In this document: positions 25,802 through 61,553 of the stretch, one piece after another
How positions within the stretch are numbered: position 1 is the first letter of the stretch
Layout of the letters: every line of letters starts with the position of its first letter
From: Candidatus Heimdallarchaeota archaeon
GTDB lineage: Archaea > Asgardarchaeota > Heimdallarchaeia > Hodarchaeales > Hodarchaeaceae
Direction: 5' to 3'
Length of the DNA stretch: 64,000 bases
Assembly (NCBI GenBank): GCA_020353515.1
Contig: CP070695.1
Location: forward strand, 2,578,155-2,642,154
The notes under the pieces: model-generated
What the model was told of the DNA's origin: nothing
The model's input: only the letters and a program-made list of their open reading frames with translations
Databases searched by the model: none
Program-made: the position numbers and the translations under genes

Positions 25802-25906
25802 TGGACCGAGTGGGATTTGGACCCACGACCTCCTGCATTAAGGATTCCTATCCAAGAGATTAGAATTTGCCAAGCAGGCGCTACTACCAAGCTGAGCTAT
25901 CGGCCC
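25802..25906 (-). tRNA. tRNA-Ala(GGC) with 30-nt intron at position 37/38 (intron 25838-25867)
   Basis: Reverse complement GGGCCGATAGCTCAGCTTGGTAGTAGCGCCTGCTTGGCA[intron]TGCAGGAGGTCGTGGGTCCAAATCCCACTCGGTCCA; G3:U70 pair, discriminator A, no encoded CCA. Confidence 0.93.
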
Positions 25907-48161: not shown

Positions 48162-49094
48162 ATGAGAGAAAATATAATTCCAGAGGAATTTATTAACCGA
48201 TGGGAGAGATTTTATGGAACATCTCGAACCAAAACTATCGTTACCAATCTTAAACAAACTGATCCCAGATTTATTGTTCATAATTCACTGAAAACTGAAT
48301 TAAATTATTTAAAGTCACAATTAGAGAAAAAAGGATTTGAATTTGAGAAGGTAAAAGATTTTAATGGGCTATTTGTGAAGTTTGAACCTTTTAATATAGT
48401 TTCCACCCCTGAATATTTGGCAGGAATGTTTTCTATTCAAGCTATCTCTTCGTTAATCCCTCCATTAAGCATTAATCCTTCTCCAAACAATATTGTGGTG
48501 GATTTAACTGCCTCTCCAGGCATAAAGACTTGTTTATTGGCTCAACAGATGACCAATCAAGGCACGATTATTGCTATTGAAATATCAAAACAAAGAATAC
48601 CAGCATTAAAATCAAATGTTGCTAGAATGGGTGTTACAAACACCATTATTTTTAATTTTGACGCTTTATTGTTCCCTAAATTAGATATTACTGTGGATTA
48701 TATTCTTTTAGACGCTCCCTGTTCAGGATCTGGGCTTAGTCTTTCCAAAAATAAGCGATTAGAACCTAGAATATTAGATGACATACCTAGGCAATCACAA
48801 CGACAAAAAGATCTACTAGAAGCTGCTTGGAGACAACTAAACCCAGAAGGAACCCTTGTTTATTCTACCTGCAGCTTAGAACCTGAAGAGGGGGAAGTGC
48901 AGATCAGTAACTTTCTTGAACAACATGAAGAGGAAGTATTCCTTCTTCCTATTCCATTCAACATTGGTATGCCAGGTAATAAAACAAATTGGACACACTC
49001 TCTCCATCCTCAATTATCAAAAACCAAACGGATCTTTCCTAAACAAGGATATGACGGATTTTTCACAGCTCTGCTGAAAAAAGTGATTTTATGA
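48162..49094 (+). CDS. RsmB/Nop2/NSUN RNA m5C methyltransferase
   Basis: DLTASPGIKT, DAPCSGSG, YSTCS..PEEGE, DGFF. Confidence 0.9.
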   Translation: MRENIIPEEFINRWERFYGTSRTKTIVTNLKQTDPRFIVHNSLKTELNYLKSQLEKKGFEFEKVKDFNGLFVKFEPFNIVSTPEYLAGMFSIQAISSLIPPLSINPSPNNIVVDLTASPGIKTCLLAQQMTNQGTIIAIEISKQRIPALKSNVARMGVTNTIIFNFDALLFPKLDITVDYILLDAPCSGSGLSLSKNKRLEPRILDDIPRQSQRQKDLLEAAWRQLNPEGTLVYSTCSLEPEEGEVQISNFLEQHEEEVFLLPIPFNIGMPGNKTNWTHSLHPQLSKTKRIFPKQGYDGFFTALLKKVIL

Positions 49095-49636
49095 GATTTT
49101 ACAAGAAATTAGTAAATGAAGAGAAAAATTTGGTTGAGACAACCATCAATCATATTCTCGACTTTAATATCTCCAATATTATTGCAGGAAAAGAGCTTAT
49201 AAAAATTATTGGCCATAGATTCGATATATATCTAATTCAGCAGGAAGATTTGTCTCTATTCAATCTTTTCTCCACTCAGTTTCTTCAAACAAATTTTAAC
49301 ATTGTACATGCTAGAATAAAACTAGGCTTTTTCATTCATGAGAAATTCCTAATTGGTATTGAGTCACTCACGTTTCTTGCTCCTTATGCACGAAGAAGAA
49401 TTCAATTAGATGCACGTAATACAAATAATTTTATTTATGGTAAAGATGTTGATATTGACACTCTTTCATTAAAACAACAAATAAAACATCTTGATGATGG
49501 CCCCACTGTCATGATTTTTTCTAATACAGACATTCCAATTGGATATGCAAAGATTAGATCTAATGGAACAAATAAATGGCTGCAGAATTTGATAGATATC
49601 GGAATTTACATACGTTCAGAAAAAAGCGCATTTTAA
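49091..49636 (+). CDS. Nip7-like PUA-domain ribosome biogenesis protein
   Basis: FIYGKDV, DIPIGYA, NLIDIGIYIRSE; coupled to the Nop2-like gene. Confidence 0.75.
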   Translation: MRFYKKLVNEEKNLVETTINHILDFNISNIIAGKELIKIIGHRFDIYLIQQEDLSLFNLFSTQFLQTNFNIVHARIKLGFFIHEKFLIGIESLTFLAPYARRRIQLDARNTNNFIYGKDVDIDTLSLKQQIKHLDDGPTVMIFSNTDIPIGYAKIRSNGTNKWLQNLIDIGIYIRSEKSAF

Positions 49637-49645
49637 CGTTTGATC

Positions 49646-50674
49646 TTAGATCCTTAATGGAGAACGGCAGTTTTTGCAGAGAGTATCCTTACCTTCTAGG
49701 ATTTTGTTGGTTGTGTTGCATTTGTGGCAGTTAATGAAGATCATCTTCTCTCCAAAGTTGCCTAAGGTGCCTTGGCCAGCCAGAACAGATTTTTCAGCTT
49801 GTTTTTTCATTTTTAGAAATAGCGGGCTATCCACTCCACTTAAATTTCTCAATGAGTTTTTGAAATCGTCTAATTTTGTCGCTTGTTCTTGTTCTTTCTT
49901 CTTCTTTTTGAAATACTCCTTTCTTTGTTTCGGTGTCATCTTACTAATTAGCTTCAATTCCCTTAAGCGAGTATTATACTGATTACGTAATGAAAGAGGT
50001 AATTCAGAGAGAAATTCAGGTGAAAATTGTTTTAATTCTTCGAGGGGCATTTGAGAGAAATTAATTTCAATATTATTTTGCTTATGTAGGTTTTGGCCTG
50101 CATTTGAAGGAGGAGGGGGAGGGGGAGCGTTTTGAGATGAAGATAAATTGCTTTTTATTGATTTCAGATCAGATTCAATGTGTTTTCGGATTGTTATGAG
50201 GATCTCATCGATAATATCACTCATATAATCTCGCGATGAAGTGTTGTTAATTTTGGACTCCATATTCCGAATTTGTTGCTCTAATTCACCTATTTTTTTA
50301 TTTTGAGCAATAATTACTTCCCCTTTACGATAACAATCTAAGCAAACACCTGAAACTAACTCATTTTCCAAGGTCCCCTTACCACAAATCCCACAAACTT
50401 TAAACATTTCACCAAGATCGTATAATACCTTAGTTAAACTTTCACTTGAAGAATTTAATTCTTCTTCAACTGTAAGGACTGCTTTTCGCACTTCTTTACC
50501 AAGGGCGGTGAACATGAGTTCTCCTTCGTGCTCTATTTCTCTATCAAATTGTTTAGTTTCGTCTAATTTTCCGAGCTGAGTGAGAATGTCTTCTAAGTTT
50601 GTAAAAGGATTCTTTAGAACGCTCCCAACAGAAGTAAGCTTCTTAATTGTTTCTTGTTCTAATTTATCAGACAC
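49646..50674 (-). CDS. Hypothetical protein: coiled coil, Zn finger, polyproline, C-terminal Zn ribbon
   Basis: CGIC..CLDC; APPPPPPS; CHKC..CKNC. Confidence 0.7.
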   Translation of the reverse strand: MSDKLEQETIKKLTSVGSVLKNPFTNLEDILTQLGKLDETKQFDREIEHEGELMFTALGKEVRKAVLTVEEELNSSSESLTKVLYDLGEMFKVCGICGKGTLENELVSGVCLDCYRKGEVIIAQNKKIGELEQQIRNMESKINNTSSRDYMSDIIDEILITIRKHIESDLKSIKSNLSSSQNAPPPPPPSNAGQNLHKQNNIEINFSQMPLEELKQFSPEFLSELPLSLRNQYNTRLRELKLISKMTPKQRKEYFKKKKKEQEQATKLDDFKNSLRNLSGVDSPLFLKMKKQAEKSVLAGQGTLGNFGEKMIFINCHKCNTTNKILEGKDTLCKNCRSPLRI

Positions 50675-50684
50675 TTTGCTTACC

Positions 50685-51428
50685 TCATCTACGTTCTAAA
50701 GTCTGAGCTCGTCGGAGGAATGTTCGTGCGACCGTTCGTTCAATTGAATCAACCTCGGATCGACTTTCATTAATCACTACTGTAACAATCTTAGTAATTA
50801 AATCGAAATTTGGATCTGCAATTTGAGGAATACTCGATTTGAGGAGTTCAGCAGAGGTAATACCTCTTTGATTTGCTGCTGTTGTAATCAGATCTTGTTG
50901 CTCCTTAAGCACCTGAATTATCGAGGGATCAATATCAGAGCTAATATCTAAAGCTTGCTTTTTGAGAAATTCAATTTGTAATTCTCGATCTTTTAGGGTA
51001 CGGTAAAGATTATCCACGGTTTTTTGAAGTTCTTCAACCAGAGAAGACTGAAGGGGATTTATTTGAGACACTGTATCTTTAAAAACTCCAAGAGGATCAT
51101 TGATAAGGATATTCTTTTCTTGAACAATAATTTGTTGATAAAATTGCTCCCAGTAGGTTTTATGGGGCAAACCAATATATCTTCGACGCTGACCTTTCGG
51201 TAATGAAACTTTAACAGTAGCTACTTCTTTTTTTTCTTGTAAACGATTAATAGAACCATCGATCTTTCCCCTACTCCAATTCAAACGCGATGCCAACTCA
51301 TTGATTGTGATTGGACGCTCAAATGTTTCGATTCTTGAACGAAGGATTTGGTCTGTAACTTCTGCATTACCTTTTGGCAAATCTATAGCATCCAAGTATT
51401 TGGCTTTCTTGTTTAATATTGATATCAA
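50685..51428 (-). CDS. wHTH + coiled-coil DNA-binding protein
   Basis: PITINELASRLNWSRGKIDGSINRLQEK HTH; heptads LQKTVDNLYRTLKDRELQIEFLKKQ. Confidence 0.7.
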   Translation of the reverse strand: MISILNKKAKYLDAIDLPKGNAEVTDQILRSRIETFERPITINELASRLNWSRGKIDGSINRLQEKKEVATVKVSLPKGQRRRYIGLPHKTYWEQFYQQIIVQEKNILINDPLGVFKDTVSQINPLQSSLVEELQKTVDNLYRTLKDRELQIEFLKKQALDISSDIDPSIIQVLKEQQDLITTAANQRGITSAELLKSSIPQIADPNFDLITKIVTVVINESRSEVDSIERTVARTFLRRAQTLERR

Positions 51429-51518
51429 TGTGTTATAGGCAAGTCTAAATCAAAATAGATTCCACTTTCTCAAAGTATCAAGAGTTACTTAATTTTAAGT
51501 AATTGAAACTGATATAAT

Positions 51519-51597
51519 CATGTCTATATAAATTTATTTATATTGAAAAATCCGTTTTGGTATTATTAGATCGATAAAATATATATAGACATGTCTA
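51519..51597. promoter_or_regulatory. Inverted repeat/palindrome, candidate operator
   Basis: CATGTCTATATA (51519-51530) and its exact reverse complement TATATAGACATG (51582-51593); perfect palindrome TAGACATGTCTA (51586-51597). Confidence 0.5.
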
Positions 51598-51778
51598 AAG
51601 ATGTCTTTTTTATTAAGAATTATTCTAGGTTAATTTAGTGTAGAACTGATTATAGGATAAAAGGCGTGCCTATATGACATAATTGAGTCTTTGCATAGAC
51701 TTAAGAGGTATATGAAGTCAAAAGCACAATAATTCGTAGCACATTTTCAGGTTCTTGATGTGTCATTTATGATTTACA

Positions 51779-52591
51779 TGATAAGGAACGGTCTTTTTGC
51801 TATTGATTATGAAATGAAATTAGTTCTAGCTATTATTGGGATCTCTCTGTGTATTTTATTCATTATCTTTTCTAAAAAACCGATTATCTCTATGTTTTTA
51901 TCACAGGAGTAGTTGTTTGGTCAATATTTGAACTAATGATTACCATTCTAGGTATCAGATCCAGTGTTGAACCCTCTATTTTTGGAATTGAATTGCACTG
52001 GTTGTTAGCGGGCATTATAAGGGGATCCTCTGAAGGTGCTGTGGTTGCAATTGTTGGGATTATCTTTGGCGACTACATTTCGAGTCGAAATCACATAAAA
52101 ATCGCCCTTCCAGCAGCCATCCTAATTCTTGCTTACTTTGTATCACGAACGCTTATCAATGGGCTTCCAAGCAAAGAAATTGGAGGGGCTGTCCTTTCTC
52201 GTAGAGAAATTTTCGCTTGGCCTTCTGTGCTCTTCTTTCTGTTCTTTATTTCCTTGTTATGATTTGGTATGTCTCTCAAAAGGATCCCCAAATTAAGAAA
52301 CGAGCTCGAAATATGTTCATTTCAACTGTGGTATTTTCTTCCATTTGGTCAGTTGCTCAATATGTCGCAAATACTCGTTGGATAGAAGTGAAAACAAATA
52401 CAACATTCATACAAGCTCCCCCTGTTGTTGAATTCTTGGCGTTTACGTGGGATATAATCTTTGAAATTTCTCTCTGTTATATGGCTTTTCTAGTTATTCC
52501 GGTAATGTTAAATTTGATCAAAAATCCCCAAGAGCTCTCTTCATCCATAACGGCCAGCTTCAAGCAGGAGATAGAGGAGGGTTATAACTAA
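51779..52591 (+). pseudogene. Multi-TM membrane protein gene broken by two frameshifts
   Basis: MIRNGLFAIDYEMKLVLAIIG.. / KTDYLYVFITGVVVWSIFELMITILGIR..SRREIF.. / SVLYFLVMIWYV.. in successive frames. Confidence 0.65.
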
Positions 52592-53062
52592 AGCAGAGAT
52601 AATAAACCCAAAAAACCACCAAATTGAATAAATTGTACCAAACATTGAATTTATGGCATTGAGATTGAACGGATCTTGGACTACAGGAAAAGAGGGAAGT
52701 ACGAGTATATATAATCCTATAGCAGCTCCTATCACTAGTACAAAACTGAGTACAAAAAGGAGATTTATTATCCAATCAGTTTCTTTGTCCTCATCCCAGT
52801 TGAATATCCGTTTCGCAATCATTGGAAGCCCTAGAGACAGAACTAAGATTAAGATTATCACACAAATAAATACGATGACCGTGATAATCCCTAGAAATAT
52901 TAAATTATCTAAATATTCACGATTTAGAATAACTGCACCAATGGATACAAGAATAACAATTCCAAGATTGATCAATAGCCCGATAAAAACTATATCAATC
53001 CAAGTGGTTTTTATCGGTGTTTGTTCGTCAGAAATTGGTTCAGATAATGTATCAGAATCCAA
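52541..53062 (-). CDS. Four-TM membrane protein
   Basis: Four hydrophobic segments. Confidence 0.7.
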   Translation of the reverse strand: MDSDTLSEPISDEQTPIKTTWIDIVFIGLLINLGIVILVSIGAVILNREYLDNLIFLGIITVIVFICVIILILVLSLGLPMIAKRIFNWDEDKETDWIINLLFVLSFVLVIGAAIGLYILVLPSFPVVQDPFNLNAINSMFGTIYSIWWFFGFIISALVITLLYLLLEAGRYG

Positions 53063-53225
53063 AAAATCTCAGCTCCATCTATTAGATGAATAATAGTTAA
53101 TTCTAATGTTGTTTGTTAGCTACATTATATAACATCTTGCTAAGCGGACCATATTCTTTCACATTTAATAGATTAGTAATGAACCCTTTTTCAAAAAATC
53201 AAGTGGAAAAAATGAATAGAATTAG

Positions 53226-53277
53226 AGGGCATCGCTCCAGAGAGTAATCCAGCTTCTGTTGGCTCGTTAGGGCTACC
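53226..53277 (-). repeat. Duplicate of RNase P RNA 3' end (att-like direct repeat of 55508-55559)
   Basis: agggcatcgctccagagagtaatccagcttctgttggctcgttaggg: 47 bp identical, 52 bp with one mismatch. Confidence 0.95.
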
Positions 53278-53390
53278 AATACAAATTTTTGATGTTATTT
53301 TACGCTTAAGGAAAAAACCTCAAGATTTAAGGGTTATTCTAAATACTAAACTGATTGAATTTTCTATTAAAATAAACTATCAAGATAATA

Positions 53391-53420
53391 ACATCTAGGA
53401 GTAGGACATCTAGGAGTAGG
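53391..53420 (+). repeat. 15-bp tandem duplication acatctaggagtagg x2
   Basis: Read directly. Confidence 0.8.
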
Positions 53421-53648
53421 AAGATAAGGACTTTTAAACCTCAATAATATCAAGGAAATTTTAGAAGAATTTTGTTTTAGGCTCAAAATTCAAAATATAT
53501 TTCTTTTTGGAGGCGTATATCAACGAGTAAAGGATTTTTAAAGGATTTAACAGAAGAAAATAATAGAATTGACAGAATTAAAACGTATTTATGGGAACAA
53601 AGTAAAAAACTCCCTCTTTTAGTTAAATTAAATGTACTTGCAATTGGA

Positions 53649-55463
53649 GTGGGTATAATAGGAGGATTAGGCTCATGGGTCTTTCGATTAGCGATTAACC
53701 TCATTTATGAGGCCTTTTTTTTCTTACCAATGCAAATTTTGAATTCTTTAGGATTATCTACCATTATTTGGGTACCTTTTCTTCTTACACCTATTATTGG
53801 GGGTTTAATCGTTGGTTATCTCACCTCTAAAGTCTCAAAAGAAACAAAAGGTCATGGTGTTCCCGAAGTTTTAGAGTCAGTTGCTTTAAACAACGGGAAA
53901 ATGAATTTAAGGATTCCTTTCATCAAGATTATTGCTTCTGCAACAACTATTGGATCTGGCGGATCAGCAGGCCGAGAAGGGCCGATTGCTCAAATAGGAG
54001 CTGGGTTTGCTTCATTAATAGGACAGAAATTGAATCTGTCTTCAAAAGAACTTCGGACTTTAGTTGTTTCAGGAGTCGCCGCAGGAATCGCTGCTACTTT
54101 TAATGCTCCGATTGGGGGATCTTTATTTGCTTTAGAAGTATTAATGGGAGAAGGGGGTACAACAGGGCTATTAATTCCAATTATTGTCGCAGCTGTTGTT
54201 GGTGTTGTAGTAGGACAACTTTTACTCGGCACTGACCCAGCTTTCATTGGATTCCCGGCTTTGGAATATCACGAGCCATATTTAATCCCTCTTTTTGTGA
54301 TTCTAGGGCTAGTTTGTGGAGCCGGTTCAGCTTTTTGGATTAAATTCTTTTACAAACTAGAAGATATTTTTGATAATATATTTGAGAAGTTCAAAATTCC
54401 TGGTATCTTGCAACCAGCTTTTGGGGGTGTATTTGTGGGTTTAACATTAGTTATAACATATTTTTTTGTTGGTGAACAGTGGGAAACAGTCACTATAATG
54501 GGACGTTCCTATCTTCCCATGGATGCTGTTTTTCAGGGTTCACTATTACAGGGATCGGTTTTGCTAGTTCTACTTACATTAATTTTATTATTTGTTTTGA
54601 AAGCCCTTAATACTGTATTTACAATTGGTACTGGTGGTTCAGGAGGTGTATTTGCTCCCACTTTATTTTTAGGGGTTATGTTAGGAGCAATCTTTGGTAT
54701 AATTGTAGACGATATTATCATTATAACCAATGTTCCGATACCTCTCCTCGCTTTATTGGGAATGGCTGCATTTTTCGCAGGGACAGGTCGTGCACCGTTA
54801 ACAGCGGTTATCATGACTGCAGAAATGACCAAGGATTATTTTTTAACCATTCCCCTTATGATAGTCGTTTCAATCAGCTGGATTGTTTCCATTCTTCTTG
54901 AAAAAGACAATATTTATACTTTGAAACTTATTCGGAGAGGAGTTGTCTTAAAGGAACCTACTGCTGATATCCTTGAAACAATCACTGTCATAGAAGCGAT
55001 GACCCCAAGGGATAAGTTGGTCGTAGTAGATACAAAAACAAGATTAGAAACAGTAATGGAGCTTGTACGAACTACTCGTCACGAGGGATTTCCAGTAGTT
55101 GAACAAGATATGTTCATTGGAGTAATCACTCTAAGTGATGTCCAAAAAGCGATGCATAGTTCTCCGAAAGATTGGAATGTATTTGATGTCTTAATAACGA
55201 AGAAGAGACCTCTTATTTGCATACACAAGGAGGCGACATTAATGCATGCTGTTCATATCATGGAAAGTAAGGATATTTCACGCCTTCCAGTGGTAGAAAA
55301 ATTTCCTAGTCAGAAAAACGAGTTTCCTAAGCTAATCGGTTGGATAACACACCATGATATCACAAGAGTCTACATTTCAGAAAAGGCACTTTCAACACTT
55401 CAAGCATCTGAAGAGCATATTTTTTCTTATCAAAATGGTCCTTCGGAAAACAAGAGCTCATAG
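53649..55463 (+). CDS. clc: ClC chloride channel/antiporter with CBS pair (start may lie further upstream)
   Basis: GHGVPEV, GGSAGREGP, FNAPIGG, GGSGGVFAP, APLT, IYTLKL; two CBS domains. Confidence 0.93.
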   Translation: MGIIGGLGSWVFRLAINLIYEAFFFLPMQILNSLGLSTIIWVPFLLTPIIGGLIVGYLTSKVSKETKGHGVPEVLESVALNNGKMNLRIPFIKIIASATTIGSGGSAGREGPIAQIGAGFASLIGQKLNLSSKELRTLVVSGVAAGIAATFNAPIGGSLFALEVLMGEGGTTGLLIPIIVAAVVGVVVGQLLLGTDPAFIGFPALEYHEPYLIPLFVILGLVCGAGSAFWIKFFYKLEDIFDNIFEKFKIPGILQPAFGGVFVGLTLVITYFFVGEQWETVTIMGRSYLPMDAVFQGSLLQGSVLLVLLTLILLFVLKALNTVFTIGTGGSGGVFAPTLFLGVMLGAIFGIIVDDIIIITNVPIPLLALLGMAAFFAGTGRAPLTAVIMTAEMTKDYFLTIPLMIVVSISWIVSILLEKDNIYTLKLIRRGVVLKEPTADILETITVIEAMTPRDKLVVVDTKTRLETVMELVRTTRHEGFPVVEQDMFIGVITLSDVQKAMHSSPKDWNVFDVLITKKRPLICIHKEATLMHAVHIMESKDISRLPVVEKFPSQKNEFPKLIGWITHHDITRVYISEKALSTLQASEEHIFSYQNGPSENKSS

Positions 55464-55508
55464 TTTTTTCACAATTACTGTGTTGGAGATTTTATTGATG
55501 AAAGAACA

Positions 55509-55883
55509 GGGCATCGCTCCAGAGAGTAATCCAGCTTCTGTTGGCTCGTTAGGGTTACCCCATCAGAGTTTCTGACATCAACCTAAGCGCTGCTCTCCAC
55601 GATCTCCGAAGAGATCATTATTTCAGCTTGCATTCACTGAGGATGCTCGTTTCACCGATACCCTACTCGTCCTCAGGAGATTAACTCGTCGATTGTTACC
55701 AGCGACTTCACTCCATCATAGCCATAAGAGTAGGGGCGTGTCGTTTCTGTAGCAGAGCCCAATCTCTCGATTGACAGCGAATAGCCACCAACAGGCACTA
55801 CCCGACTGTTCAGCGTACATGAATGGCTGGAATTTCCTCAGGTTTCAGGAGAAACCCGGAGTCAGACTTCTGCTTCGATGCCG
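55509..55883 (-). ncRNA. rnpB: RNase P RNA
   Basis: P1 GGCAUCG/CGAUGCC; CR-I GAGGAAAUUCCAGC; CR-II ACAGAAACGA; CR-III UGAAACG; UGCAAG; CR-V AACAGAAGCUGGAUUA. Confidence 0.93.
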
Positions 55884-56330
55884 TGGTTATTAGGTTCCCT
55901 CTAGTTTATTAATCTTTTGAGGGTTTCACGTTCTAATCCTCTTGCCCAAACCTCTGGCCCTACAACCGTCATACGATTTGGATCCTATTTGCCTTATTGA
56001 ACAGATTTTTCGACAAGTGACTGAACTTATTCAATTTTTAATTTGGTTTCAACCAAATCTATTCACTTCATATGACCCTCACGTATCTTGACAATTTCTT
56101 TCACTTTTGGGCAAACATAAAATAGCATGAGATTGGATAATCGTTAAGTATGGTAAATAAGTCAATCCATCAGATGTATTCTTTTTTAAGCACCTTAAAA
56201 ATCCTTAAATACCCTTTTTAAACTTAAATAACAGGAAAATTTTAAATATGTTATGTGTACATAAATAATTATCCGATTATCTTAACCATAAGGATTCTGG
56301 AGGGTTAAGGCAAGGAGTGAAAAGAAATGA

Positions 56331-56543
56331 TTAAAGTCGCGTTGGTGGATTTTCTGGAGTAATTATGATCCTGATGAAATGAAAAGAGCAACCCTTCATG
56401 AGATATTCCATACCTATGATGCAAAACATGTAAGTGGTTATTATATTATGCGGCATGAGATTCAATATGGTGGGTGGGTTCTCCACAGTAATACAGATTC
56501 CACCGTCAGTAGTAACGATGTTCACTTCGATGGCCCGCCTTAA
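56331..56543 (+). pseudogene. C-terminal remnant of a metzincin-like Zn metalloprotease
   Basis: Frame reads ..MKRATLHEIFHTYDAKHVSGYYIM..DGPP* (HExxHxxxxxH + Met-turn); N-terminal part absent. Confidence 0.6.
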
Positions 56544-56566
56544 AGAACAAGAATGGCTGTGAGAAA

Positions 56567-57259
56567 ATGAGTGGCTACGCCCATTTTGTTATAATAACTT
56601 TGACTTTACTCCTCTTAGCTTCTCCTACTATATCTATTGAGGGTGTGCAATCTGAGTGGTCTTCTTCTATAACAGTCAAGCGTTTTCGCTGGAAAGCGTT
56701 GAAATCTGAGTTACGGGATCTAGATACCCAGGAACAATATCGTGAGAATTATTTAATTGGGGGAATAAACATTCCAGGCGGAATCAATACAATTGCCCTC
56801 CGTGCAATCCCCCCAAATGATTTCGATTTTTTCAATGGTAGTAGACTCGACTTAAGTGTAACGATTGAAGGCGATATATCTCTTGACCCATTGCCCCAAA
56901 ACGGCTCAGATTACCATTTACTCCTACTTCCAATAAAAATTGATAATAAATCATTCTTTGAGGTGTTATTTGCAAAGACAGGCCTCTTAGAAAATCTCAC
57001 TCACTCTATTTTCCTGAATTCTTCGATTACTGACACAATCGCACGATCTTCCTTAAAATATAATGGTGTTCTTGATATTCTGTATGAGTGGGACATTACT
57101 ACAGGATTATTAGTTCGAAAGGAAGTTACAGCTCCCTCAGGATTGCAACTCATAATTGTACCCACAAGTGAAATCTCAGTTCCAGGATGGAACTTACCAA
57201 TAGTCCTCCTAACCGTTTTGATAATTAATTGGTGGCATAAGAAAAGAAAGAAGGATTAA
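56567..57259 (+). CDS. Secreted protein with C-terminal PGW-TM-basic sorting signal
   Basis: Signal peptide; VPGWNLPIVLLTVLIINWWHKKRKKD. Confidence 0.75.
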   Translation: MSGYAHFVIITLTLLLLASPTISIEGVQSEWSSSITVKRFRWKALKSELRDLDTQEQYRENYLIGGINIPGGINTIALRAIPPNDFDFFNGSRLDLSVTIEGDISLDPLPQNGSDYHLLLLPIKIDNKSFFEVLFAKTGLLENLTHSIFLNSSITDTIARSSLKYNGVLDILYEWDITTGLLVRKEVTAPSGLQLIIVPTSEISVPGWNLPIVLLTVLIINWWHKKRKKD

Positions 57260-57393
57260 TTGTCTGATAGGGAATCAGATGTATAGGTCTCGAAGTTCAG
57301 TAATTTACAGGATCAAATGGATTAATGATGACGCCAAGAAAAAGAGAATTTCGTTATTTGCTTAACATCAATAAGACAGGGTGAGATTGAACA

Positions 57394-57807
57394 ATGCGAA
57401 AACAGGATTATTTAGCGCTCCTCCCAATTTTTCTTCTCTTTACCGTCTTGTTCTTGATCATTATAGTAATCCCAGTTGGGAGTCTACTCATAGTGATGTT
57501 TACTGCTAGCTATCGCCAAGATGTAATTATGATAACTCGTGCGAACGAGATGGAAAACATCACAGGGTCAATAGGGAATTTAACAGCAAAGAATCTATCA
57601 TCTGCCCCGAAACTCCTATCAGCATTACAGCAGATGGTTCAGGATGACAAAATAAACCAGAAGATAGTGGAAATCACTGTTAAAGAGCGGGATCACTTAG
57701 TTCAATTGTTTGAGGAGCTTAACTTTCCTTTGTCTTGTAATAATCCAATACATGTATATTTTGAAAATATATTACTTGAAATCATTCTTGCTGAAACTGT
57801 TTCATAG
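57394..57807 (+). CDS. Membrane-anchored hypothetical protein
   Basis: N-terminal hydrophobic segment. Confidence 0.6.
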   Translation: MRKQDYLALLPIFLLFTVLFLIIIVIPVGSLLIVMFTASYRQDVIMITRANEMENITGSIGNLTAKNLSSAPKLLSALQQMVQDDKINQKIVEITVKERDHLVQLFEELNFPLSCNNPIHVYFENILLEIILAETVS

Positions 57808-58003
57808 TTCTCTTTCCAGTGAAGGAAGCACGTTTTTGATAGGAGAAGCATTAGTGTTCTTTGGTAGCTCGGGTGAACCGAATGACCTAGAAAAATTGAT
57901 TAATTTGCTTACATTTAGATGTCTTTGGTTGACTGTGGAATCTTGAAGGCTTATACTGGGATCTCTAGTTAAGGAAAGCTAATTTTGAACATCGACTTGG
58001 CCG

Positions 58004-59392
58004 TTAAATAGGGATTTCAATCAAAAACTCTGATCCCTCATCGATTTTTGAGCTGACTGACATTTTCCCTCCATGTCGTTCAACTATTGTTTTTGTAATG
58101 TACAATCCTAGTCCCATCCCTTGTTTGTAGTATGAAGTTGATTGAGAAAAGAACGGTTCAAAGATTCTATCCATCTTATCATCAGGGATTCCAACACCCT
58201 GGTCTAGTATTGAGATGTTGAGACCTTTTCTGTCAAGTGTAATTCTTGCCTCAACCTCCGTAGCCTTTGGACTGTGGTGACAGGCATTTTCGATTAGATT
58301 GTAGATTGCTTGCGTCAAACGATCAAGATCCAACGAAAAAAGTGAATTCACCTCACGATCATTCTTAAATTCCAGTTTAATTCGTGTTTTTTCTTTCATA
58401 AGATTAATATCATATTCTAACGCAGTTTGTAGCTCATTGAAACGAATCAATCCTTTATCAATTGAAAATATTCCCTTATTTACATTTTCGACATCTTTAA
58501 TGGCTGTTATTTGGCGTTCCAGCTTTCTTGTGTTTCGTAAAAGCGCATCTATGATATTTTGGTCGTATCCGTCCTTTTCGCTATATTTTTTAGGTAATAA
58601 CTCTATAAATCCTTTAAGCAAAGTGATTGGGGTTCCCATCTCGTGAACAGTAATCTGTAAAAATTCGTTTAGTGCTTTTTCCCGCCTTAGACGACTCGAT
58701 GGCAACCATGAGACATCAGCGATAACACCAACCGAAGCAGGTTTTTGTGTTTGAGAAACCACTGGATCTACGCTAATGAGAACATCTTTGTTCTTCCCAT
58801 CCATCTGATAGATCTTCATTAGTACAAATTGATCCAATGACAGTAAAAATTCGTAAGTCATAATGAATTTAGTAATATCATGTCCAATTAACTGTGTGGG
58901 TGAGTTGAATCCCACAAGATCTGCAAACGCTTGGTTTGAAAATACTATTTGTCCCTCTGGGTTGGTTACGGTCATTCCAGCTCTTGTTGCTTCTATCAAT
59001 GATCTTAATCTTTTGTCTGAAGCCCGTAATGCGTTAAAGGCTCTCTTCTCTGTCGTAATATCCCGAACTACCCCATAAAGATATTTATCATCAACTGTAC
59101 CCACAGAAAGCTGTATGTTTACCTCAATATCAAGGTTTTTTCCTTTGGTTTCAATTATTTTTGGGTTATAATCTCTGAATGAGGTTAAAAACATTTGACC
59201 TTTTTTATCGAAAAAGGATCGAATATCGTAGCCAATAATTTCTGATAGTTCCACCTCTAGGATTTCACTCAATTTATCATTACCCCAAAGTATCTCCCAT
59301 TTATCGAGCTCCTGGATCCAAAAACCAATTTCTGCTTCCTTGAGCATTTTAAGTATAAAAGGGCTGTCTAATATGTTAGGAAACTGTTTCAA
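58004..59392 (-). CDS. PAS-PAS sensor histidine kinase (orphan in this window)
   Basis: H-box HEMGTP, N-box NLIENA, G1 DQGVGI, F-box FEPFF, G2 GMGLGL. Confidence 0.92.
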   Translation of the reverse strand: MKQFPNILDSPFILKMLKEAEIGFWIQELDKWEILWGNDKLSEILEVELSEIIGYDIRSFFDKKGQMFLTSFRDYNPKIIETKGKNLDIEVNIQLSVGTVDDKYLYGVVRDITTEKRAFNALRASDKRLRSLIEATRAGMTVTNPEGQIVFSNQAFADLVGFNSPTQLIGHDITKFIMTYEFLLSLDQFVLMKIYQMDGKNKDVLISVDPVVSQTQKPASVGVIADVSWLPSSRLRREKALNEFLQITVHEMGTPITLLKGFIELLPKKYSEKDGYDQNIIDALLRNTRKLERQITAIKDVENVNKGIFSIDKGLIRFNELQTALEYDINLMKEKTRIKLEFKNDREVNSLFSLDLDRLTQAIYNLIENACHHSPKATEVEARITLDRKGLNISILDQGVGIPDDKMDRIFEPFFSQSTSYYKQGMGLGLYITKTIVERHGGKMSVSSKIDEGSEFLIEIPI

Positions 59393-59720
59393 AGATCAAT
59401 TCTCCTTATTCCTGTCTTTCTAAATCTTTTGAAATTTTATAAAGATTCGTAATTAGAACGTGAAAGTATTTGTTCAATCCCCGAGTAATCTCTATATTGA
59501 TGAAGTGGCGAGGTTTAATGAAGAAATTCAACTGTTAACGGAGCCAAAAAGGGATAGACTTAGTAATAACAATTAATAGTGTTATTTTCGTCATTATTTT
59601 TTTAAGGAAAGAGGGGATGTTATCAAAGATCCATAATTTCGAAACATAATTCTGAAAATTCTTTAAGAGAAAATAATGCAAGGAAAACTGAACCAGAATT
59701 AAATGGAGTAACCTTAGAAA

Positions 59721-61553
59721 ATGCGTATTGTTGTTTTGGATACCGATAAGTGTAAACCCAAGAGATGTGTGAAGGAATGCCGTGGTTCCTGTCCAGTTGT
59801 CCGCTCAGGAACCGAAATGTTCGAATTTGAAACGCCTGTTTCCCAACCAATCATCTATGAACAGTTTTGTACTGGATGTGGAATTTGTCCAAAAGCGTGT
59901 CGATTTCATGCTCTCTCAATTATTAACACTCCTGAACGATTAGACAAAGACTTAACTCATAGATTCGGGAGAAATGGGTTCACATTATTTCGATTACCTG
60001 TTATCAAACCAAAAAAGGTGAATGGTTTAGTTGGTCAGAATGGAGTGGGTAAATCAACGGCATTAAAGATCCTATCTGGGGATATCATACCTAATTTTGG
60101 AGTTCATGAGGAGAAACCTACTTGGGAGCGTGTCCACGAGTATTACAAGGGAACTGAGCTCCAGAATTATTTCCAAAAAATGATTGAAAACAAAATTAAA
60201 TGTGTTCGTAAACCACAATACATTGATACCATTGCTAAACACGTTAAGGGAACTGTAAAGGATGTTATAACCCGATTTGATGAAAGAAACGTCCTTGATG
60301 AAATCCAAGAAGATTTAGCTCTTCAAGAAATCTGGAATCGTAACATTAAACTCCTCTCAGGTGGAGAACTTCAGAAACTAGCTGTCGCTGTAGCAATGGT
60401 TCGTGATATGGATATCTATCTATTTGATGAGCCTTCTTCCTTTCTTGATATTAACGAGCGTCTTCGGGTCGGAGTAGCTATTAGAAGCCTAAACGATCAT
60501 GGAAAGACTGTAGTTATTGTTGAACATGATTTAGCTGTGTTAGATTACCTTTCTGATTATGTTACTACTTTTTATGGCACTCCATCATCCTATGGTATAA
60601 TTTCCCAACCATATACCGAAAAAGAAGGAATAAATGTATTTCTTGATGGCTTTATCCCTTCAGAAAACATGAGATTCCGTGATTACTCTATTATCATTCA
60701 AAAATCGTCAGTAAGAGAGAAAAGTATTGTTTCTGACGAAATACTATCTTACCAGGATCTTTCAAAAATCTTTAAACAGAGTAATTTCTCTTTAGACGTT
60801 AGAAAAGGAATGATTCATCAAAATGAGATCATTGGAATATTAGGTCCAAATGGAATTGGAAAAACTACCTTTATAAAGATGTTAGCGGGCCTAGAATCCC
60901 CTACTTCAGGAACAGTAGATCGGGTAATTCTGGATAACCAACCAGATAATGAAAATGCTAATTCGACTGATGTTCTCCGAGTAGCGTATAAACCTCAATA
61001 TATATCTTTAAATGGAGACCAAACGGTAGAAGCTTTTCTCTTGGAAACAGGAGGAGCAATTGTCGCCACGTCCCAATTTCAAAGCGAGTTTATCCGTCCT
61101 TTTCAATTGACAGAGCTATTTGATCAATCACTTAAGTATTTGAGTGGAGGGGAACTACAAAAAGTCGCTATTGTAAGCACTTTAGCCAAAGATGCCGATT
61201 TATACTTATTTGACGAACCATCAGCGTTTTTGTCAATTGAGGACAGATTAACTGCAGCTAAGATCATCCGAAGACTAATTAAGAGTCGGAAGGCTGCAAG
61301 TTTTATTGTAGAGCACGATATCGTTTTCCAAGATTATGCAAGTGATCGGATAATTGTTTTTCTTGGACAATCAGGCGTTTATGGGAAAGCTTATTCCCCA
61401 TCTCCCGTTAGAACAGGGATGAACCGATTTCTTGGAAATTTAAAAATCACTTTTCGACGTGATCCTAAGAGTGGGCGTCCCCGAGTAAATAAAACTGATT
61501 CTAAGCTTGATCGCCTCCAGAAAAACCAAGGCGAATATTATTATGAGAAGTGA
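59721..61553 (+). CDS. abce1: ABCE1/Rli1 ribosome recycling ATPase
   Basis: N-terminal Fe-S Cys cluster; two NBDs (GQNGVGKS, GPNGIGKT, LSGGELQ); RPRVNK..S. Confidence 0.97.
   Translation: MRIVVLDTDKCKPKRCVKECRGSCPVVRSGTEMFEFETPVSQPIIYEQFCTGCGICPKACRFHALSIINTPERLDKDLTHRFGRNGFTLFRLPVIKPKKVNGLVGQNGVGKSTALKILSGDIIPNFGVHEEKPTWERVHEYYKGTELQNYFQKMIENKIKCVRKPQYIDTIAKHVKGTVKDVITRFDERNVLDEIQEDLALQEIWNRNIKLLSGGELQKLAVAVAMVRDMDIYLFDEPSSFLDINERLRVGVAIRSLNDHGKTVVIVEHDLAVLDYLSDYVTTFYGTPSSYGIISQPYTEKEGINVFLDGFIPSENMRFRDYSIIIQKSSVREKSIVSDEILSYQDLSKIFKQSNFSLDVRKGMIHQNEIIGILGPNGIGKTTFIKMLAGLESPTSGTVDRVILDNQPDNENANSTDVLRVAYKPQYISLNGDQTVEAFLLETGGAIVATSQFQSEFIRPFQLTELFDQSLKYLSGGELQKVAIVSTLAKDADLYLFDEPSAFLSIEDRLTAAKIIRRLIKSRKAASFIVEHDIVFQDYASDRIIVFLGQSGVYGKAYSPSPVRTGMNRFLGNLKITFRRDPKSGRPRVNKTDSKLDRLQKNQGEYYYEK

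Follow-up and report, generated by a model that had tools for sequence, protein, structure and literature searches.

The RNase P RNA gene and its displaced end

The 64,000-nt stretch of contig CP070695.1 analysed here (assembly GCA_020353515.1 of Candidatus Heimdallarchaeota archaeon; hereafter the window, in whose numbering window coordinates are given) contains rnpB, the gene for the RNA component of RNase P, convergent with clc, a gene for a ClC-CBS channel. The terminal part of rnpB is present twice, once in the intact gene and once on the far side of clc (Table 1). The genome, denoted G000, is a single contig of 4,943,496 bp; other genomes of the genus are likewise denoted by G numbers, and contigs by L numbers. 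Infernal aligned model positions 1-288 of RF00373, its full length, to the minus strand at 55877-55515 with 140.4 bits (gathering score 84), and this is the one covariance-model match to RNase P RNA in the genome. The P1 helix is closed (5' GGCATCG, 3' CGATGCC), which extends the gene to about 55882-55510. The two repeat copies agree at 51 of 52 nt with a start-to-start spacing of 2282, and 47 nt of them match exactly (53226-53272 and 55508-55554). The displaced copy lies downstream of rnpB in the same orientation as the gene and is followed by a T-rich, terminator-like tract at about 53200-53225, so that the islet lies between direct repeats derived from the 3' part of a gene that itself stays intact, as in integrative islands. 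Because the 47-mer, with up to three mismatches allowed, occurs exactly twice in the genome and blastn revealed no rnpB-like piece beyond the gene and the displaced copy, a chance origin of the repeat is excluded.

Contigs assembled from the best-matching public sediment run, which may be the source sample of the G000 assembly, enter the repeat from unique flanking DNA (52000-53255) and span the islet between the two copies (53243-55537), with near-equal depths of 9.9 for the flank, 9.7 for the islet and 11.5 upstream. As the unique junctions are thus covered at equal depth, an assembly artefact is unlikely to be the source of the repeat. The initial annotation of this DNA had described an exact copy of the terminal 47 bp of rnpB in the same orientation 2282 bp downstream, had placed only a ClC-CBS gene and a 15-bp tandem duplication between the copies, and had named an artefact as what could overturn it. 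The first description agrees with the repeat search, Infernal and blastn, and the second with Pfam and the repeat search; given the equal-depth contigs over each unique junction, from a run that is possibly the source sample, the repeat holds.

Two further observations concern rnpB itself. In P1, one base pair differs by a compensatory change: G000 has GGCATCG/CGATGCC (window 55876-55882 and 55510-55516), and G008, G011, G014 and G017 have GGCGTCG/CGACGCC. In addition, a clade-specific insertion of ~25 nt with a GNRA-capped hairpin (GGGGTAACCC) lies immediately 5' of the repeat within the gene.

The only convincing gene between the two repeat copies is clc, whose stop codon at 55463 is 44 nt from the repeat. 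Its product matches Voltage_CLC (PF00654, E 1.8e-88, residues 107-470) and then, in two stretches, CBS (PF00571, 1.1e-18), which is the domain order of a ClC-CBS protein. The module shared with relatives spans about 53421-55474, from a TATA-like upstream region to the stop, and its left edge was placed by blastn at 53406-53424. The 15-bp tandem duplication found at this edge (units 53391-53405 and 53406-53420) is represented by one unit in G017 and probably arose by slippage. The first canonical start codon of clc is GTG 53649, and the conserved N-terminus begins near ATT 53499. The reading frame is open from 53481, with no ATG, GTG or TTG at the conserved N-terminus (window 53481-53651); the ~50 residues ahead of GTG 53649 are kept in G017, G008 and G003, and the GTG itself is replaced by GTA in G017. 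The conserved ATT 53499 (ATA in G003), a GGAGG at 53509-53513 and an ACG at 53523 suggest that clc may be translated from a non-canonical start.

Table 1. Features of the rnpB-clc locus, in window coordinates.
Feature	Coordinates	Strand	Basis
rnpB, archaeal RNase P RNA, intact; putative attB/attL	55510..55882 (about)	-	RF00373 match and P1 extension
Proximal copy of the repeat, formed by the last 52 nt of rnpB (rnpB positions 319-370)	55508..55559	-	Repeat search; positions by blastn
Displaced rnpB 3' fragment, attR-like, 51/52 identical to gene end	53226..53277	-	Repeat search, blastn, alignment
ClC-CBS channel gene (clc), convergent with rnpB	53499..55463	+	Pfam, N-terminal conservation, orthologues
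Conserved clc upstream region with TATA-like TTTTAAA (53432-53438); left edge of module common to relatives	53421..53480	+	Alignment of G000, G017, G008 and G003
15-bp tandem duplication, ACATCTAGGAGTAGG twice, at left edge of clc module	53391..53420	+	Repeat search
Distal block orf342, orf247, orf108, orf124, orf173, between displaced fragment and conserved orf181	49646..53062		Synteny

Tandem arrays of rnpB fragments across the genus

The neighbourhoods and whole genomes of relatives were searched with rnpB by blastn, the genus being represented by the 22 species genomes of the collection and by metagenome contigs. Extra rnpB 3' fragments, from one to five each, were present in at least 6 of the 22 genomes as well as in metagenome contigs. 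The gene and five fragments occupy 9 kb in G011, four fragments are spread over 21 kb in G008, another four occur in G003, and one or more were found in each of G012, G014 and G017; the metagenome contigs L062, L064, L065 and L067 have one or two each. In all, ~25 fragments could be aligned, and they are co-oriented with rnpB where the full gene is on the same contig (G000, G008, G011 and G014) and with one another within every array contig. All but two of them end within about 3 nt of the mature rnpB 3' end (...GGAGCGAYGCCCT), and each is then followed by a pyrimidine- or T-rich tract resembling the terminator of rnpB. The 5' ends vary between rnpB positions 153 and 331, such that five or six fragments are just 37-56 nt long and many measure 130-218 nt. 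Certain 5' boundaries recur in classes with different flanking DNA, namely at about 191 (three fragments), about 297 (two) and 315-323 (four). In G017, a contig break coincides exactly with the rnpB 3' end, as expected at a repeat.

The same architecture is therefore not peculiar to one assembly but is seen in several independently assembled metagenome-assembled genomes (MAGs) and metagenome contigs, and the attL/attR-like geometry noted at first for a single locus recurs in the clade, where several genomes have displaced rnpB 3' fragments arrayed in tandem. Flanking repeats resembling attachment (att) sites, absence of a recombinase and tandem stacking at one site were found together in G008, G011, G003, G014, G012 and G017. 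Because the rnpB tail is single-copy in seven genomes from two other families of the class, the fragment arrays are, among the genomes searched, confined to one clade of the genus. A seemingly distant, inverted fragment in G015 was set aside as uninformative, since the scaffold consists of N-joined pieces. Of the nominally one-contig genomes, G015 is not closed and G007 is probably not closed either; the former (L049, L039) is made up of ~1.8-kb pieces with 100-N spacers, so its positions and distances are meaningless.

The cassettes delimited by the fragments measure 0.6-3.8 kb and contain one to four genes in either orientation with their own promoters. Their cargo includes a PIN toxin and its small partner; a radical-SAM/SPASM enzyme together with a 436-aa protein; a DUF4145 protein and a winged-helix protein; NadA; a GNAT-thioredoxin fusion; a NosD/beta-helix protein and a DUF3267 peptidase; and ABC ATPases. 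The radical-SAM cassette is the first after rnpB in G008 and the fifth in G011, and in both genomes clc lies behind it; this shared order fits the addition of new cassettes next to the intact rnpB. Shared cassettes are 80-86% identical between genomes, similar to clc and below rnpB (91-93%), and the arrays are therefore old and mostly inherited. Origin of the fragments as retro-copies, with an exact 3' end and variable 5' truncation, was considered and rejected: the cassettes are multi-genic, lie in both orientations and have promoters of their own, and no reverse transcriptase was seen.

The history of the clc cassette can be followed in the same genomes. The clc gene is present in 15 of the 22 genus genomes, with other and varying contexts in the distant members. 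At the DNA level, the module of G000 is 88% identical to that of G017, 83% to that of G008 and 82% to that of G003; G014 also has the module, and G011 also has clc. In these six genomes (G000, G003, G008, G011, G014 and G017), clc is always the most distal cassette and adjoins the orf342-orf247(-orf108-orf124) block. A diverged fragment (rnpB positions 298-365, 88-89% identical to the resident rnpB) separates clc from orf124 in G008 and G014. In G017, clc is located between orf124 and orf173, that is, with the order of clc and orf173 swapped relative to G000. The clc cassette is the oldest and most distal one of the clade and not a recent arrival; in the reading proposed below, it has been inherited vertically and is not self-mobile today. 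The view of the islet as a recent or foreign element was not sustained, as the module occurs at 80-88% DNA identity and always most distally in G017, G008, G014, G003 and G011, and the orthologues are graded.

Such an age is at odds with the repeat in G000. The displaced fragment differs from the gene end at 1 of 52 nt, where ~6 differences would be expected if it were orthologous to the fragments of G008 and G014, and it has G000-specific states of the gene end, including the T of the P1 pair (G-C changed to A-T). Some of these states occur also in fragments of other genomes, so the argument from shared states is suggestive only. The repeat is too similar for the age of the cassette, and its near-identity therefore implies later gene conversion with the gene end or re-integration of the cassette within the G000 lineage. 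Tracing of the donors by comparing the fragments with all rnpB genes was abandoned, as there were too few differences to assign them.

Two side observations on clc in relatives may be added. The clc orthologue of G011 has as its direct neighbour a second ClC paralogue of 34% identity (L075 2478-4463). In G017, the flanks of clc are not rnpB fragments but two diverged copies of the orf124 3' end (L048 4486-4549 and 6904-6967).

The site appears to be unoccupied in G010: rnpB has the same orientation, 37 nt separate its 3' end from the end of the orf181 orthologue (orf181, window 49091-49636), and beyond its 5' end follows the orthologue of orf610 (window 59721-61553). Compared with G010, G000 has extra DNA both 3' (49637-55507) and 5' (about 55883-59720) of rnpB. 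The sites of G013, G004 and G002 are compact as well, with rnpB between the same two genes and gaps of about 50 nt. These four genomes are distant relatives, with rnpB 75-78% identical. It was also observed that rnpB is inverted in place in G013, G004 and G002 (L036 9708-10072, L038 9557-9921 and L037 9520-9883) as compared with G010 (L027 9488-9852) and G000.

The distal block of G000 is absent from this position in G010, G013, G002 and G004. It is a rearranged native block and not an element, because every one of the 22 genus genomes has an orthologue of orf342, which in the distant members lies at another place. Variability extends to the 5' side of rnpB (55883-59720), where G010 and G013 lack orf230, orf137 and the gene for a PAS-HisKA-HATPase sensor kinase (58004-59392, minus strand); G017 shares the kinase gene with G000. 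Elsewhere in the window, a tRNA gene on the minus strand (25802-25906; Rfam tRNA, 47 bits) has a 32-nt intron after the anticodon loop.

Proposed recombination at the rnpB 3' end

We propose, tentatively, that the 3' end of rnpB is a recurrent point of Campbell-type insertion in one clade of this Hodarchaeales genus, served by a site-specific recombinase acting in trans. The regenerated gene with its truncated, displaced tail, the fixed 3' boundary, the stacking of cassettes and the apparently unoccupied site in a distant relative together constitute the signature of a single crossover of the Campbell type. A site-specific enzyme in trans is favoured because there are fragments of 37-56 nt, a length typical of att identity blocks, because 5' boundaries recur in classes with unrelated flanks, because most of the genus genomes searched have one to several non-Xer tyrosine recombinases at other loci, and because the geometry resembles that of tRNA and tmRNA islands; the enzyme that acts would most likely be a recombinase of this kind. 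In outline, a circle with 0.6-3.8 kb of cargo, an rnpB 3' segment and the terminator tract would recombine once with the chromosomal rnpB, and the crossover would restore an intact rnpB and leave, beyond the cargo, a second copy of the tail that is truncated at its 5' end. Each further insertion at the intact gene would add a cassette to the stack, so that the newest adjoins rnpB and the oldest is farthest from it. G000 would have kept one cassette, that of the ClC-CBS gene, and its displaced 52-mer would later have been homogenised by gene conversion, unless the cassette re-integrated. The recombinase might be supplied by a helper element or be a chromosomal one, in either case acting in trans, and the cassettes would be integrase-less, cis-mobilisable satellites with rnpB as their attB site.

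Several observations weigh against this proposal. The first group concerns the enzyme. No tyrosine or serine recombinase was detected by Pfam in the islet or among its neighbours, and six-frame whole-genome searches of G000, G003, G008, G011, G012, G014 and G017 gave no match to PF00589 or PF00239, even as fragments, on the array contigs. The open reading frames (ORFs) of the cassettes yielded no recombinase in Pfam, PHROGs, NCBIfam and PADLOC scans (for one scan, among the 25 commonest families listed). The genus genomes searched do have a Xer-like gene, and most also have one to several non-Xer tyrosine recombinases, located off the array contigs; these extra recombinases do not correlate with arrays, as genomes with empty sites have them too. 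In G000, no att-like sequence was found beside the only non-Xer tyrosine recombinase (737657-738529), the best candidate being an 11-mer with an alignment score of 22, below the 99th percentile of random windows. Neither 13 rnpB loci nor the array contigs, a limited sampling, showed a helper element with a cognate integrase, and pattern scans of IMG/VR revealed no virus or plasmid with the rnpB site.

The second group concerns the cargo and the sites. The cassette genes are ordinary chromosomal genes with orthologues elsewhere in the genus, and shared cassettes are no more alike between genomes than vertically inherited genes are. For clc, the GC content of 0.35-0.45 is like that of other coding DNA in the window and gives no sign of foreign cargo, and the identity of its orthologues falls gradually from 93% to 40% across Hodarchaeales and other Asgard archaea. 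Judged from these sequence comparisons, the ClC gene is an old native gene of the group and its cassette holds ordinary cargo. No precise clc-less site was found in close relatives among the genus genomes compared. Moreover, clc of G017, G011 and G003 has no rnpB fragment on its distal side, and in G006, G001 and G016 one to three unrelated genes lie between the rnpB 3' end and the conserved block without any rnpB fragment. Finally, fragments of 130-218 nt suffice for homologous recombination.

The proposals of the initial annotation fared unequally in this light. Its observation that the islet lacks an integrase agrees with the Pfam and six-frame searches. Its choice of rnpB as an attB site is strengthened by the recurrent geometry at the rnpB 3' end, which would suit site-specific and homologous recombination alike. 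A trans-mobilised islet gains from the att-like flanks, the lack of a recombinase and the tandem stacking, but no helper with the same site specificity was found in the limited sample of loci. An empty site of the kind that it called for may be present in the distant G010, but none, in precise ClC-less form, was found in the close relatives compared, and the search it suggested among viruses returned no IMG/VR contig with the rnpB tail site beyond one chance-level 21-mer.

That 21-mer match, on contig L069 and to a looser pattern, was rejected since ~1.7 such matches are expected by chance; the contig has 48% GC, and the match lies inside an ORF near RAMP-like and TnpB-like genes, with no integrase. 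Other candidates were discarded as well. The products of orf342 and orf247 were considered as hidden recombinases, but neither had PDB, Atlas or family matches, and orf342 is genus-wide and not array-specific. A joint from 52497 to 53422 (run X4, depth 2) is not an excision product but stems from a G017-like relative. The assembled contigs of the public runs break in the repeat and show no excision joint; such contigs cannot reveal rare circles or deletions.

The principal rival is homologous recombination by the host, in which the rnpB tail would act as portable homology, either for crossover with a circle or for unequal exchange between chromosome copies in a polyploid archaeon, and circles would form by pop-out between repeats. 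We regard this explanation as possible, if on the unlikely side. It accounts for arrays without any recombinase and for native cargo, and many of the fragments, at 130-218 nt, are of suitable length. The repeat of G000, which has evolved in concert with the gene end, also speaks for it, as do the differences in cassette content and order between close genomes, including the swap of clc and orf173 in G017 with its two diverged orf124 3' ends. However, homologous recombination works poorly on fragments as short as 37-56 nt, and the 5' boundaries recur in classes with unrelated flanks. It can also spread existing junctions between rnpB and cargo but cannot create new ones.

Decay of a classical integrative element, virus or plasmid that has lost its own integrase appears improbable. 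In the textbook case, such an element leaves behind an att-like repeat derived from a stable-RNA gene's 3' end, and the initial annotation had offered a reduced remnant as one explanation of the islet. Each of ~25 cassettes would, however, need to have lost its integrase completely, and no recombinase fragment was found in these cassettes, which come from at least six genomes and several metagenome contigs; this makes a remnant unlikely. In addition, the islet has room for clc alone, the ClC gene is native to the group and unremarkable in GC, and three exact-pattern scans of IMG/VR brought up no rnpB-targeting element.

Template switching or break repair at the rnpB terminator, in which DNA copied from elsewhere would be inserted and the fork would re-enter rnpB upstream, thereby duplicating the tail, is a still more doubtful explanation. 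It would suit cargo made of native genes that lie at other loci in relatives, as well as the varying 5' boundaries, and both sides of rnpB are variable across the genus even without fragments, with the gene inverted in G013, G004 and G002. But random re-entry and break points would not be expected to place the ends of the fragments, with just two exceptions, within about 3 nt of the mature 3' end, and the same units of cassette and fragment occur at different array positions in different genomes. An assembly artefact, finally, could draw on the breaking of short-read contigs inside the repeat, as at any repeat, but is extremely improbable given the single contig of G000, the equal depth of its unique junctions in a run that is possibly the source sample, and the recurrence of the architecture in independent MAGs and metagenome contigs.

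Known integration systems and significance

Integration into the 3' ends of tRNA and tmRNA genes by the Campbell model is well established, as are tandem arrays at ssrA and tRNA genes. The rnpB arrays resemble these islands in targeting a stable-RNA gene that is regenerated on insertion, in having their far end marked by a displaced 3' fragment of the same orientation, and in forming arrays of fragments by successive insertions. They differ in their target, rnpB, in having no integrase in or beside the cassettes, and in cassettes that are very small (0.6-3.8 kb), hold ordinary native cargo and are accompanied by fragments of up to 218 nt. Having neither an integrase nor foreign cargo, they do not belong to the classical integrative islands.

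Elements without an integrase are also known, such as the cis-mobilisable elements (CIMEs) of Streptococcus, which are flanked by att sites and mobilised in trans. Satellite elements have been described in the tycheposon arrays of Prochlorococcus (bioRxiv 10.1101/2020.12.28.424599). The rnpB arrays share with CIMEs and tycheposon satellites the att-like flanking repeats, the lack of a recombinase, the tandem arrangement at an RNA gene and cargo of the niche type. In contrast to them, no helper with a cognate integrase was found in the genomes searched for rnpB arrays, and the shared rnpB cassettes, at 80-86% identity, suggest vertical inheritance and not recent exchange.

Integrons, which have been reported in Archaea too, consist of arrays of small cassettes. 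As in integrons, each rnpB cassette ends in a repeat resembling a recombination site, and new cassettes are added proximally, adjacent to a fixed site. However, the rnpB arrays are without IntI, their repeats are direct copies of the tail of an RNA gene instead of attC hairpins, and their cassettes have promoters of their own and lie in both orientations; neither an IntI gene nor attC-type sites were found at the arrays, as array contigs gave no PF00589 match and the repeats are direct rnpB copies. The closest systems are therefore the islands and arrays at tRNA and tmRNA 3' ends, followed by integrase-less cis-mobilisable elements and satellites, and integrons share the array logic alone. A bolder and rather unlikely possibility is that the rnpB 3' end anchors an integron-like gene-capture platform of independent origin, in which an unrecognised recombinase, or host machinery working at a defined site, would move ordinary chromosomal genes as small cassettes in and out of an array downstream of this essential ribozyme gene, in the archaeal lineage closest to eukaryotes.

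Archaeal integrative elements of the SSV, pTN3 and TKV types have been reviewed (PMC8371274). In searches by term, neither 'RNase P' nor 'rnpB' occurred in an archaeal recombinase review or in the Asgard mobile-element paper, and full-text searches of the literature library used returned no paper on rnpB as an attachment site, the matches using rnpB as a phylogenetic marker or reference gene. What is new is rnpB as the target gene and the integrase-less cassette arrays, in an Asgard clade; integration at tRNA and tmRNA 3' ends was already known.

If the proposed insertion mechanism is true, rnpB would represent a new class of target gene for Campbell-type insertion, and a hot spot of gene-content change in Hodarchaeales would have been identified. 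In addition, a short DNA site, the last ~50 nt of rnpB, would provide a handle for finding the recombinase and free mobile elements. For the ClC gene, these results point to an old, native gene in a recombination-prone neighbourhood and not to a freshly imported trait.

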